From positions 4,507 through 68,506 of IMG/VR virus record IMGVR_UViG_3300045685_000034: a stretch of DNA of 64,000 bases; one strand, given 5' to 3'. The stretch is from a virus. The notes beneath the pieces are model-generated. The model did no database searches and was not told the origin of the DNA. It worked only from the letters and a program-made list of their open reading frames with translations. Below are positions 7,739-13,350 of this stretch, one piece after another (positions within the stretch are counted from its first letter, which is position 1; each line of letters begins with the position of its first letter). A program made the translations under genes and the position numbers.

Positions 7739-8749
7739 GTGATAAACGTGGAAATGAAAGAGAGTTTTATAAATTCTGTCATTCGTAACATGGAGCCTGA
7801 ACTTGAAGTTAATCAACTTAAGAAATTGAAAATTGTACTAACGATCAATTTAAATCATGTACGTGTAGAAAAAGAGAACACTGATCTAGTCATATACGAT
7901 GAATCGGGTGACATTGCTGCATACAAACAGTATTTTGTGTCAATGAAACTGCGCAATTTATCTAACGGCACGATAGAACTCGCTATGAGGACGATCGACG
8001 CCTTCCAAAGATCAGTGAAGAAACAATACAAGGACGTAACAACTCAAGATATTCGATTGTACATCGCGTACCGCGACATGAAGGATCATTTATCAAGCGC
8101 CACTTTGAATCGTGAACGCGGGTGCATCTGCAGGTTCTATACTTGGCTGTTCGAGGAAGAATATATCCCTAAGAACCCAGCAAAACGTGTTGAACCTATT
8201 AAGGTGGAGAAACGACTGAAAAAAGCCTTCACACCGATTGAAGTGGAACTAATGCGGAACGCCTGCAGGAAGCCAAAAGAAAAAGCAGTGTTTGAACTAT
8301 TGCTAAGCACGGGTTGTCGAGTCACTGAGTTAACTATGCTAGCAATGGAAAATTACGACCAACAAAGAGGGACCATTACAGTGATTGGAAAAGGCAATAA
8401 GGAGCGCACGGTCTTCGTCAACGCTCGCGCTAAAGTGGCAATTGATAATTACTTAATGATTAAACCGCATTTTGAAGGTTCGATCATTTGCGGCCTTCAT
8501 GGAGTTGGAACACAGATGACTTCGAATGGCATTCAAAAAATGGTCAAAGAGATTGCAAAGCGTGCTCATGTAGCTCACGCGCATCCGCATAAGTTTCGAA
8601 GAACTGCAGCAACATTCGCTCTGAAGAGAGGAATGAGCCTAAACGATGTAAGGCGCTTTCTTGGACACACGGATGTTGATACGACGCTGCAATATATTGA
8701 TACTAGCGGATCGGATCTGAAGTTAGAACATGAGAAGTTTGTCGCATAA
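7739..8749 (+). CDS. XerD-like tyrosine recombinase (no arm-binding domain); candidate cassette recombinase
   Basis: Catalytic set present: TGCRVTEL (R), GKGNKER (K), HPHKFRR (HxxR), LGH, TTLQY; N-terminal core-binding domain. Confidence 0.92.
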   Translation: MINVEMKESFINSVIRNMEPELEVNQLKKLKIVLTINLNHVRVEKENTDLVIYDESGDIAAYKQYFVSMKLRNLSNGTIELAMRTIDAFQRSVKKQYKDVTTQDIRLYIAYRDMKDHLSSATLNRERGCICRFYTWLFEEEYIPKNPAKRVEPIKVEKRLKKAFTPIEVELMRNACRKPKEKAVFELLLSTGCRVTELTMLAMENYDQQRGTITVIGKGNKERTVFVNARAKVAIDNYLMIKPHFEGSIICGLHGVGTQMTSNGIQKMVKEIAKRAHVAHAHPHKFRRTAATFALKRGMSLNDVRRFLGHTDVDTTLQYIDTSGSDLKLEHEKFVA

Positions 8750-8752
8750 AGC

Positions 8753-8776
8753 TCAACAGTTTGGGGCATTAGCGTA
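8753..8776 (+). other. 9-6-9 cassette-boundary site A (spacer TGGGGC)
   Basis: TCAACAGTT-TGGGGC-ATTAGCGTA, 3 bp after recombinase stop; same spacer as site T; arms look inverted relative to other copies. Confidence 0.6.
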
Positions 8777-8795
8777 GGTTTGGAAAGGAACACAT

Positions 8796-9026
8796 ATGTC
8801 ATATAAAGAAAAATGGATCAATGTTGGTTTTGATGAAGGCTATCTTTCCGCCTTGAAGGATGTTCTGAATTACACCATAGAGTTTGAAAACAATTCTGCC
8901 GATTCATTAATAACCAATATGAGACTCAGGAAGAGAGACTTTTTGAAATATTGGGAAGAAAATGAACTAGATTTTATTAAAGAAGACGAACTGAATAAAA
9001 AAGCATTAGAAATTTGGTTAATGTAA
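8796..9026 (+). CDS. hypothetical protein
   Basis: RBS GAAAGG; first array gene. Confidence 0.7.
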   Translation: MSYKEKWINVGFDEGYLSALKDVLNYTIEFENNSADSLITNMRLRKRDFLKYWEENELDFIKEDELNKKALEIWLM

Positions 9027-9304
9027 CTTACACTATCGGAGGATACAGAGGAGGTTTAATTTTGGAAAGACAGTTGCTTGAATGCAAGTATTGTAACCAA
9101 AAGGCGTTAATGCATGTTGACGATGAAGGTTCTTTTGGAGGAATGGGAGTGTCTTGGGATCACTACATTTGCAAAGTGTGCCTTAGCGAAAAAGATGTTT
9201 CAGTCAAATGGGATAACGAAATCATAAAATGGACAAAACGCGATCAATTTATGGTTCGCACTGACGATGATGTACGAGAATTTTATCATTCATCAGTCAG
9301 CTAA
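9014..9304 (+). CDS. hypothetical protein with two CxxC motifs
   Basis: CKYC, CKVC; stop lies in left arm of site C; start uncertain. Confidence 0.65.
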   Translation: MVNVTYTIGGYRGGLILERQLLECKYCNQKALMHVDDEGSFGGMGVSWDHYICKVCLSEKDVSVKWDNEIIKWTKRDQFMVRTDDDVREFYHSSVS

Positions 9305-9320
9305 CGACGTGAATAGAGGA
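9297..9320 (+). other. 9-6-9 site C (spacer GACGTG)
   Basis: TCAGCTAAC-GACGTG-AATAGAGGA. Confidence 0.7.
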
Positions 9321-9329
9321 GGAAAAACA

Positions 9330-9617
9330 ATGAAGTTTAGAAAGAAACCAGTAGTGATTGAAGCTGTAAAATTTGAAGGCTTTATGTCTGTCACTGGGCA
9401 AGTTGTCTTTAGTGAACGTCCTATATGGATTAATGATGCAATCGGAAAAGAGATTCGATTTTTCGATAGAGAGAGTACACTCACAATCCAAACATTAGAA
9501 AAGTCCATGTATGCCAAGGTAGGAGACTACATTATCCGCGGTGTACAAGGTGAATTGTATCCGTGTAAACCTGATATTTTCAAAGCCACCTATGAAGCAG
9601 TGGAGGACGGCGAATGA
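9330..9617 (+). CDS. conserved phage protein (PGDYG-like)
   Basis: MKFRKKPVVIEAV...GDYIIRGVQGELYPCKPDIFKATYE. Confidence 0.85.
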   Translation: MKFRKKPVVIEAVKFEGFMSVTGQVVFSERPIWINDAIGKEIRFFDRESTLTIQTLEKSMYAKVGDYIIRGVQGELYPCKPDIFKATYEAVEDGE

Positions 9618-9853
9618 ATATAGAACATACAGCTTTAGATGAAAAAGGATTTTTGGAAAAAAGTATCAGTATTAAAAAATTGGAGAATGGGCATTACCTT
9701 GTGACAGCATACGAACTACCCACAGGGAAAAAGAAAGAAAAGGCGATCACTATGGAGTTTACGCAAAATGGAATTAATGCCTTATTGGGTGGAATGATGG
9801 CGGCAAGTGGGAACGTACCAGTTTTACCTGTCAGCAATCAAAAGTTCCAGTAA
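9614..9853 (+). CDS. hypothetical protein
   Basis: ATGA-coupled; stop lies in left arm of site E. Confidence 0.7.
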   Translation: MNIEHTALDEKGFLEKSISIKKLENGHYLVTAYELPTGKKKEKAITMEFTQNGINALLGGMMAASGNVPVLPVSNQKFQ

Positions 9854-9869
9854 CCAATAATATTAATGA
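9846..9869 (+). other. 9-6-9 site E (spacer CAATAA)
   Basis: TCCAGTAAC-CAATAA-TATTAATGA. Confidence 0.65.
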
Positions 9870-11817: not shown

Positions 11818-12143
11818 AAGTAAATCCTATTTTCAAATTTGCGCTATTGGTTTTGCTGGTTCTGTCACCAACCCTAATTGGAGTGTTTGGTTGTATTTTT
11901 ACGGACTGGGACAATGATAAGGTTGCAGGCATAGTGATTCTTGTCTATATGGTCGGAACACTATTCATTCTATTGCTAGCGTTTTTGTGGGTGTTCATTT
12001 TTGAAGATAGTTATGATGAGTGGAAAAAGCTTCAAGAAAAGAATATCAATAAACGAGCAATCCATGATAAAGAAATGAAACGACTGAAAGAAGAGATGGA
12101 AGAAATGCGGCGACGGTTAGATGATCGTTGGGACAATTTTTAG
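11814..12143 (+). CDS. two-TM membrane protein with coiled-coil tail
   Basis: Two hydrophobic segments. Confidence 0.75.
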   Translation: MKVNPIFKFALLVLLVLSPTLIGVFGCIFTDWDNDKVAGIVILVYMVGTLFILLLAFLWVFIFEDSYDEWKKLQEKNINKRAIHDKEMKRLKEEMEEMRRRLDDRWDNF

Positions 12144-12144
12144 T

Positions 12145-12168
12145 TCAGCTAACCGACCCAATTGCATA
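12145..12168 (+). other. 9-6-9 site G (spacer CGACCC)
   Basis: TCAGCTAAC-CGACCC-AATTGCATA, 1 bp after stop. Confidence 0.7.
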
Positions 12169-12250
12169 AAAAAAGACCGCAACCTATGAGGTGGCTGCGG
12201 TCAATGAGCTGGACATTGAAAGGATCAATAAAAAAGGAGTACCAGCTCAT
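12168..12250 (-). ncRNA. putative small RNA (family shared with 63648-63738)
   Basis: Minus-strand TACAAT (12255-12260), TGAGCTGG..CCAGCTCA hairpin with CTCCTTTTTT loop, GACCGC terminator plus T-run. Confidence 0.55.
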
Positions 12251-12288
12251 ATGTATTGTACATCAAATAAGAAGTGGAAGTGAAACAT

Positions 12289-12588
12289 ATGATACCCGAT
12301 ATCGAAATCGGTAAAATTTATAAAACATCTGATGCAAGCCCGCCAGCGTTTGCCAAAATCACAAAAATTTCTAATCATGATATTTGGAACGATATCTTAG
12401 AAGATGACGAATTAACGCAGCTTGCATGGGGAGATTGGTATCAATGGGCCAATAAAAATATCTACTGCCATTTTGGAGCTGGATTCGACACGTATAGGCT
12501 GGTTCCGGCAACCAAAGAAGAAATTGCCATTTACGAAGATAAAGTTAGAAAATATCGATCGGAGGAAAACAATGATACCGAAGTTTAG
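12289..12588 (+). CDS. hypothetical protein
   Basis: Starts ATGATACC, like the downstream YopX gene. Confidence 0.7.
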   Translation: MIPDIEIGKIYKTSDASPPAFAKITKISNHDIWNDILEDDELTQLAWGDWYQWANKNIYCHFGAGFDTYRLVPATKEEIAIYEDKVRKYRSEENNDTEV

Positions 12589-12967
12589 AGCTTGGGTAAA
12601 ACCAGGAGTTTTATCAAACCATCCCGACGGAGTAGTTGCGGATGCAAAACCCGACTTTTTAGGAATGGAATGCTTAGTAAAGAGAGACGATTTAAAAGGT
12701 AAAAAGTGCTTTACTGAAATATTTGATTTTGAAGACATCGAACTCATGCAATCAACAGGACTGAAAGACAAGAACGGCGTGGAGATATTTGAAGGGGATG
12801 TAGGATGGGATGACCACTTAGAAGTAAATGGAAAAGTAATTTACGATGAAGGAAAATTCATTTATGAATGGGAAAATATCTGCGACGATCTCTGTGAAGT
12901 TAATGCTGATATAGATGTTATCGGCAACATCTATGAGAATCCGGAGTTGTTGGAGGCGATAGAATGA
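12572..12967 (+). CDS. YopX-family protein
   Basis: MIPKFRAW, LMQSTGLKDKNGVEIFEGD, VIGNIYENPELLE. Confidence 0.93.
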   Translation: MIPKFRAWVKPGVLSNHPDGVVADAKPDFLGMECLVKRDDLKGKKCFTEIFDFEDIELMQSTGLKDKNGVEIFEGDVGWDDHLEVNGKVIYDEGKFIYEWENICDDLCEVNADIDVIGNIYENPELLEAIE

Positions 12968-13137
12968 AACTAAAAGAACTAATCGAGCAGCATACGTTAA
13001 AAGTTGTTTTGTGCGGTCACTGCGAATGTGGAGAGCGCAAATATGATTTGATTACAGATCATAATCTCGCTTATCCACCAATTCATGAGTCGACTATTTT
13101 AGAAGTTAAGCCAGAGTTGTTGGGGGTGCCGAAGTGA
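12964..13137 (+). CDS. small hypothetical protein (CxxCxC)
   Basis: ATGA-coupled ORF MKLKELIEQ... Confidence 0.55.
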   Translation: MKLKELIEQHTLKVVLCGHCECGERKYDLITDHNLAYPPIHESTILEVKPELLGVPK

Positions 13138-13325
13138 AAGATGAATTTATGGTTAGGTACACAAATAAACACGGTTTAGGCTGCACGATAGTCGTATATG
13201 CTGCCACGATGTTTGATGCAAAAGAAAAAGCTGAAAAAGAACTTGGTGATTACTTAAAGTCCATTAATGAGATTGTCAACTGTTCATTTGCACGAGAATT
13301 GATTCGCAGTCAAGACTTTGAGTAG
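13134..13325 (+). CDS. hypothetical protein
   Basis: Coupled ORF. Confidence 0.65.
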   Translation: MKDEFMVRYTNKHGLGCTIVVYAATMFDAKEKAEKELGDYLKSINEIVNCSFARELIRSQDFE

Positions 13326-13326
13326 A

Positions 13327-13350
13327 TCCGGGATCGTCGCCAATTAAGGA
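13327..13350 (+). other. 9-6-9 site H (spacer GTCGCC)
   Basis: TCCGGGATC-GTCGCC-AATTAAGGA, 1 bp after stop, right arm runs into RBS. Confidence 0.6.

Follow-up and report, generated by a model that had tools for sequence, protein, structure and literature searches.

Integrons carry small, mostly co-oriented cassettes of high diversity, bounded by sites that overlap stop codons, and classical integrons have been reported in phages (PMC9892861). For lambdoid phages, the modular theory put forward boundary (linker) sequences, short conserved junction sequences at which mosaic exchange keeps the gene order (cited in PMC3029335). Here, a 24-bp junction site consisting of two 9-bp arms around a 6-bp centre was investigated in a 64,000-nt stretch of viral DNA (positions 4,507 to 68,506 of IMG/VR record IMGVR_UViG_3300045685_000034; hereafter the window), where it delimits arrays of accessory gene cassettes. 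The 69-kb record holds two prophages, prophage 1 and prophage 2, and across related phages the element occurs in about 200 copies in some 38 arrays. No description of this array system was found in the searchable literature, in which PMC9892861 and PMC3029335 came nearest, and it differs from phage integrons and boundary sequences in its address-coded centres and fixed order.

The arrays share with integrons the cassette features named above, a crossover that adjoins a conserved AAC and, in a subset of arrays, a tyrosine recombinase gene at the head. Unlike integrons, they have no IntI and no attC hairpins, their arms show little complementarity, and the recombinase gene, missing from most arrays, points in the same direction as the array. 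Their centres are slot-specific and ordered, and the cassettes are slot-restricted and may comprise several genes or reverse-strand modules. Lambdoid linkers likewise combine junction sequences with mosaic exchange, whereas here one architecture (common arms, variable centre) stands at all junctions and the crossover window spans 3–4 nt. The pdif modules of Acinetobacter plasmids and the integrative mobile elements exploiting Xer (IMEX), which use the XerCD of the host, also have Xer-type sites in which two arms enclose 6 bp, and neither depends on a recombinase of its own; IMEX additionally have one degenerate arm and exchange at one edge of the centre. In contrast, the sites described here all have direct orientation, show no resemblance to the candidate host dif, and have position-specific centres. 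The R64 shufflon (Rci, sfx) has multiple asymmetric, partly conserved sites served by one tyrosine recombinase, but the sfx sites are inverted and the inversions fall within one gene, whereas 0 of 104 sites lie on the opposite strand here. Mycobacteriophage stoperators differ in being spread genome-wide, in contrast to the confinement of the present sites to 3.5–8 kb. Engineered cassette exchange with heterospecific lox or FRT sites resembles the arrays in its common arms, different spacers, cognate-only recombination, and ordered swap without deletion; it is a laboratory design, whereas the array arms are asymmetric. We know of no natural example of heterospecific-site cassette exchange.

The origin of phage mosaicism has long been debated, the proposals being illegitimate recombination with selection, relaxed homologous recombination, and linker sequences. 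The junctions described here are explicit, countable, and address-coded, and sequence comparison alone suffices to place their crossover to within about 3 nt.

Junction Site and Centre Classes

The consensus of the site is (TAG)n-TCCGGTAAC-N6-WATCAAGGA(GG). Both arms are common to the sites; the left arm, TCCGGTAAC, carries the stop codon of the preceding gene, and the right arm, WATCAAGGA, often extends into the next ribosome-binding site (RBS). A first-pass annotation of the window had listed six sites in prophage 1, at 8753, 9297, 9846, 10937, 12145, and 13327, and their coordinates and sequences were correct, as were its counts over 15 copies (a TC start in 14 of 15 and an exact TAAC in 10 of 15). 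The degenerate pattern derived there matched eight times in the window, all on the + strand, against 0.38 matches expected, a circular test because the pattern had been fitted to these same sites. In an independent test on 19 related loci fetched via the recombinase gene of prophage 1, the pattern had 31 matches on the + strand downstream of that gene, compared to two on the − strand. Positions that the pattern had left free were also informative (C3, G4, 13–15, and TAG at −3 to −1). An iterated weight matrix yielded 95 sites at a score of at least 12 bits in 340 kb and, at a score of at least 10 bits, 104 sites on the + strand versus none on the − strand.

The sites coincide with gene ends. 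The stop of a + strand open reading frame (ORF) lay within 12 nt of 168 of 198 sites (85%). The TAA of TAAC served as the stop at 51 of these 198 sites, and the stop ended one base before the site at 52, where it was TAG in 44 cases; the TAG at −3 to −1 and the TAA at positions 6–8 of the left arm are in the same frame. Folding of 50-nt windows centred on 60 sites gave no indication of hairpins (mean z of +0.22, with 2% below −2). In the array L017:9452–13505, which accompanies the most divergent recombinase (59% identity), the arms differ from the consensus at all sites (...ATTAAC or ...ACTAAC on the left, TAGAAAGGA on the right) and the centre order is kept, which looks like a concerted change within one array. 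An arm 'dialect' co-varying with recombinase divergence was considered and rejected, as L017 is the only case and none was seen at 64–66% identity.

The 6-bp centres fall into seven classes, TGGGGC/TGGAGC, GGAGGA, GACnnn, CACGCC/CACACC, TCAGCC, CGAAGC/CGACCC, and GTCGCC. The class is set by the first three bases (TGG, GGA, GAC, CAC, TCA, CGA, GTC), and the last three are more variable. The order of the classes is fixed in essentially every array, with only three descending steps among 153 adjacent ones, and all seven classes are present in prophage 1. The ordered series was not part of what the first-pass annotation stated for the prophage 1 array, and the observation is stronger than it was first given.

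The motif might instead be an expression signal, either a stop context with an RBS or the binding site of a stoperator-like regulator, with the breakpoints described below arising as a by-product of selection for intact genes. Its strict orientation with transcription, the stop codons of the left arm, and the GGAGG of the right arm in many copies fit such a role. This explanation leaves the slot-specific, ordered centres between unrelated flanks unaccounted for; moreover, sites that precede terminators or reverse-strand modules have no RBS and still keep the motif, and the motif is missing from the rest of the phage genomes, with a single weak match in the remaining ~50 kb of the window. We consider it very improbable.

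Breakpoints between Related Phages

The flanks of same-class sites from different phages were compared and were unrelated in most cases. Among 1615 distinct pairs in which both 150-bp flanks were unrelated, the centres differed at 0.76 of 6 positions, compared to 2.6 and 3.1 of 9 in the arms. Because the centres match between unrelated flanks, the conservation of the site is independent of any conserved gene. When only the left flank was common (65 pairs), the left arm had 0.49 mismatches and the right arm 3.18 (baseline 3.05); when only the right flank was common (101 pairs), the values were 3.15 and 0.48, respectively. In the per-position profile, linkage to the left flank extended through position 9 and linkage to the right flank began at position 13, which places the exchange point within positions 10–12, directly after TAAC. 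In alignments, 100% identity stopped inside the site. Junction pairs between classes were rare (6, versus 166 cognate), and three between-class events broke after position 9 (two events) or position 11 (one event, in which the centres share GA). Over 30 arrays, 26% of 551 distinct homology end points were at most 15 bp away from the centre of a site, where 4.1% would be expected. Thus, gain and loss breakpoints between related phages, which the first-pass annotation had proposed to look for in the spacer, do fall in the 6-bp centre according to the alignments, mismatch counts, and end points alike. The elements are genuine recombination junctions that bound accessory cassettes, and they are the dominant breakpoint hot spots, not the sole ones.

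Exchange at such junctions could proceed at Botstein-type boundary sequences through the homologous or annealing recombination of the phages themselves (Sak, RecT), with no site-specific enzyme. The concept is established for lambdoid phages (cited in PMC3029335; for relaxed recombination, PMC3945230). Annealing proteins are encoded in these genomes (Sak at 3212–3922 with RusA and SSB in prophage 1, RecT in L026, and Sak in L192), an additional enzyme would be unneeded, which fits the arrays that lack a recombinase, and slot-specific centres would keep the order equally well. Homologous and annealing recombination need at least some 20 bp of identity. Where the flanks are unrelated, partner sites have ~6.4 mismatches in 24 positions and share perfect identity over about 7–13 bp, with an invariant core of TAAC plus 3 nt; this identity is therefore too short for ordinary homologous recombination. 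Crossovers are also concentrated within a 3–4 nt window where homology would spread them over the shared stretch, and identical arms at seven slots would be useless or harmful to a homology-guided exchange. Exchange by these pathways is, in our estimation, rather unlikely.

Arms that are common to all slots suggest a single binding protein. Together, the short identity, the ~3-nt crossover window, the shared arms, and the joint change of arms in L017 therefore favour conservative site-specific recombination. We consider an ordered, site-specific exchange of cassettes between the cognate sites of different phages to be somewhat the better supported account. In such an exchange, a conservative site-specific recombinase would recognise the common arms, and after cleavage beside TAAC the slot-specific centre would be tested by base pairing. 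Recombination would then take place only between cognate sites of two co-resident genomes, be it two prophages or a prophage and an incoming phage, and the outcome would be a one-for-one exchange of cassettes in which the gene order is never scrambled. The differing centres within one genome would guard an array against self-deletion, and the rare tandem same-class sites, as in prophage 2, may have been left behind by insertion or by an exchange that was unequal. The fuller proposal is natural recombinase-mediated cassette exchange in which a phage Xer-like or host enzyme acts on the common arms, uses the 3-nt address beside TAAC as a homology test, and makes frequent slot-for-slot swaps of accessory genes, such as those for anti-restriction methylases and regulators, with the gene order left intact; this we put forward tentatively, as a possibility that stops a little short of being probable.

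Several observations weigh against site-specific exchange. No enzyme is tied to the sites, and the second recombinase is absent from most arrays. The arms do not look like inverted repeats and are atypical of the core sites of tyrosine recombinases: arm complementarity is 3.7 of 9 versus 2.5 by chance and comes essentially from positions 1/24 and 7/18 only; the 9-6-9 spacing holds. The right arm is partly plain Shine–Dalgarno sequence. The larger share of homology end points (74%) lies more than 15 bp from any site centre. Rare illegitimate events could also end up clustered at gene boundaries if selection retains the viable recombinants. Contigs of public runs (ant metagenomes, Logan contigs only) contained no excision or circle junctions, a result that is uninformative on activity; the sites are common to co-occurring phages, and assembly into contigs is therefore interrupted there.

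If site-specific exchange is the correct account, it would supply a dedicated molecular mechanism for modular evolution of the Botstein type. If it is enzyme-driven, the arrays would be, to our knowledge, the first natural system to use heterospecific centres to enforce ordered exchange, and they might provide a new orthogonal toolkit of seven recombination sites.

Cassettes and Slot Confinement

The array of prophage 1 lies directly downstream of the recombinase gene and contains the following features.

7739–8749, + strand: Xer-family tyrosine recombinase, 336 aa as listed, directly left of the slot-1 site
8753–8776, + strand: slot-1 site, centre TGGGGC, with an eroded left arm; shares its centre and right arm with L012:9256
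8796–13325, + strand: six cassettes, including PGDYG-like, DUF1642, membrane protein, and YopX genes
9029–9052, + strand: slot-2 site, centre GGAGGA, weight-matrix score 22.2 bits, a seventh site missed by the first-pass annotation
9267–9617, + strand: listed ORF of the PGDYG-like protein, true start probably further downstream
9297–9320, + strand: slot-3 site, centre GACGTG, its TAA being the stop of ORF 9014–9304
9846–9869, + strand: site at the slot-4 position, centre CAATAA, degenerate, its TAA being the stop of ORF 9614–9853
9896–10804, − strand: cassette of slot 4–5 with two genes, 92 aa of unknown function and a 181-aa HTH_3 regulator
10937–10960, + strand: slot-5 site, centre TCAGCC; a conserved leader of ~60 bp, which contains an inverted repeat, separates it from the DUF1642 gene
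11019–11579: DUF1642 gene, prophage 1 cassette
11814–12143: membrane protein gene, prophage 1 cassette
within 12422–12967: YopX gene, prophage 1 cassette
12145–12168, + strand: slot-6 site, centre CGACCC, followed by a terminator hairpin
13327–13350, + strand: slot-7 site, centre GTCGCC, end of the array, right arm entering the RBS of ORF 13360–13554

The site at 8753 had been suspected of having inverted arms and of being attI-like. It is an ordinary first-slot site, TGGGGC followed by ATTAGCGTA, identical to L012:9256 in these parts and eroded in its left arm. At the degenerate site 9846, the left flank is homologous to L010 as far as the CACGCC site of L010, and a bidirectional terminator hairpin follows the site. 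The slot-5 leader (10961–11018, + strand), which also occurs in L015 and L016, lies ahead of the DUF1642 gene, contains an inverted repeat of 9 bp (ATGTGATCA ... TGATCACAT), and is possibly an operator or internal promoter region.

Prophage 2 has a second array, with no Xer-like recombinase.

56808–62994, + strand: second array, prophage 2; the window ends before slot 7
56808: site, centre TGGGGC
57116, 57447, and 57757: sites, centre GGAGGA
58023: site, centre GACCAC
58839 and 60685: sites, centre CACGCC
61515: site, centre TCAGCC
62971: site, centre CGAAGC

Classes 1–6 are thus represented before the end of the window, with three sites of class 2 and two of class 4. The cassette between the two slot-4 sites (CACGCC; 58839–60708, + strand) contains two methyltransferase genes, one at 59244–60011 for a C5 cytosine methyltransferase, whose match to the 324-position profile stops after position 175, and one at 60231–60683 for another protein with a methyltransferase domain. 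The same end of this methyltransferase cassette abuts a slot-5 site in L012, an arrangement that suggests an unequal 5 × 4 exchange, broken just after TAAC.

Cassette content is diverse. Each slot held 13–21 gene-content types among 15–26 arrays, with 1–6 genes each, and 72 of 379 cassette ORFs were on the opposite strand. Gene families are mostly found in one slot, as with YopX (19 of 23 in slot 6–7) and DUF1642 (21 of 22 in slot 5–6), and a few families hop between slots. Slot confinement of this kind is what exchange between cognate sites predicts, and it is unlike the free insertion of an integron. The first-pass annotation had proposed free excision, insertion, and reshuffling of cassettes in the manner of integrons, and this is contradicted by the slot-specific centres, the fixed order, and the slot-confined families. 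The slots carry DNA methyltransferases, regulators, and many unknown genes, and therefore offer a defined place to seek phage counter-defence genes.

Xer-Like Recombinase and Its Link to the Arrays

The recombinase ORF at the head of the prophage 1 array was reported as intact, and this holds. It matches Pfam Phage_integrase PF00589 (3e-27) with a SAM-like N domain, has the catalytic residues R194, K221, H284, R287, H310, and Y319, and finds its best PDB match in Escherichia coli XerD (7e-20). Its likely true start is GTG 7748 (333 aa), as its homologues are 333 aa long. The protein scores below the NCBIfam cut-offs for XerC (164.5 vs. 335), XerD (145 vs. 330), and XerA (194 vs. 220), and against the IntI model TIGR02249 it reaches 67.5 bits (cut-off 265) over residues 68–233 only. 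Close homologues are found in Enterococcus avium, E. raffinosus, E. malodoratus, and relatives. The gene overlaps its upstream neighbour and no junction site was found at its 5′ side; as there is no site on its left, the recombinase gene was ruled out as a cassette itself.

In the first-pass annotation, the array was read as an integron-like platform with this recombinase as its own enzyme, responsible for excision, insertion, and reshuffling of cassettes. Members of its family with at least 59% identity head an array in every examinable case, namely 17 viral loci, L191, L192, and an E. malodoratus genome. L192 is integrated by a large serine recombinase (L192:825–2273); the Xer-like recombinase is therefore not its integration enzyme, which leaves it another job. 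Its Xer-like character and complete catalytic residues fit the proposed role, as does the presence on one chromosome of prophage 1 with the gene and prophage 2 without it, which would allow action in trans, and the tandem same-class sites could be insertion footprints. Arrays found without selection for the recombinase gave a different picture. Among ~25 arrays found via the class-5 site, three had the recombinase and three an unrelated tyrosine recombinase; the rest had an ordinary integrase only, among them complete or near-complete records (G003, G004, G007, G009, G010, and G012). Across the genomes of 25 species of the genus, 18 had slot-5 sites and 10 had the recombinase (both in 9, array only in 9, recombinase only in 1, neither in 6), such that half of the array-bearing genomes have no copy and the association is not convincing. 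Arm scores were equal with and without the recombinase (p = 0.73), and arrays beside recombinases of 64–66% identity had standard arms. Homologues at 35–40% identity are translationally coupled to a gene for a ~220-aa N6_Mtase (4–7 nt stop overlap), and in L195, the one inspected in detail, no junction array lay downstream. Fixed order and slot restriction, moreover, contradict free reshuffling. An integron-like platform run by this recombinase is thus unlikely in our view. The link between recombinase and array is weak: the recombinase is missing from most arrays, those of several complete phages among them, and no array was seen with relatives of 40% identity or less. The first-pass reading as a whole was confirmed and extended as an observation, and its combination of integron and recombinase found only partial support.

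Under ordered exchange between cognate sites, the leading named candidate for the responsible enzyme is the neighbouring Xer-like recombinase, which would work both in cis and in trans, an assignment we hold to be doubtful. The enzyme could equally well be a recombinase of the host or some other phage protein; for a host recombinase, the candidate host dif lends no support. In E. malodoratus, the candidate dif has the left arm AGCTTTGTTAA, the centre TGTATA, and the right arm TTATGTAAACT. Resemblance of the junction site to it was rejected: in one register the left arm matched at 7–8 of 11 positions, which is not significant, and the right arm matched at 4 of 11.

The N6_Mtase–recombinase pairs (L195:8351–9999 and L197:2048–3726) recur in other phages. 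Slot 4–5 of L026, L045, and L046 contains an unrelated 316-aa tyrosine recombinase (L064:7153–9213, from the phage of L026), which is followed by a sigma-70 region-4-like protein and then a small N6 methyltransferase. This recombinase was discarded as the array enzyme and is regarded as cargo, its relatives of 45–66% identity being found in phages without arrays.

Host Range and Genomic Setting

The array phages are temperate, and their hosts are Enterococcus of the avium/malodoratus group. The ~25 further arrays came from a scan of viral contigs for the exact slot-5 site and showed the same class order; the remaining matches in that scan were unrelated coding sequence. A 15-mer scan of genome contigs, for which the pattern was poorly chosen, gave mostly chance matches, and only E. 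malodoratus was useful. A degenerate slot-6 pattern was discarded within the genus, as its frequency equalled that of its control. In the GenBank phage collection, the array phages had no near match and were similar to other phages only in scattered genes; the slot-5 site with its leader was not matched there. The arrays are absent from cultured, annotated phages.

In these phages, the array has the replication genes on one side and the late-gene activator on the other. Prophage 1 extends from before the window start to ~38.8 kb, and its early genes (Sak at 3212–3922, an HNH nuclease, a replisome organiser, RusA, and SSB) are followed by the recombinase and the array; next come the small terminase, at 15525, and then the late genes. 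Prophage 2 runs from its integrase (45073–46257, − strand) past the window end. Just upstream of the small terminase of prophage 1, a 69-aa ORF (14835–15044, + strand) matched FtsK-gamma at 1.1e-6, and near-identical copies occur in L059, L027, and L060. A role for it as an FtsK-gamma-like recombinase activator was rejected, since its Pfam score is below the cut-off (28.6 vs. 30.6 bits) and it also occurs in L059, which has no recombinase. The early region of prophage 1 also encodes a pentapeptide-repeat protein with DUF5758 (window 1948–2496, + strand).

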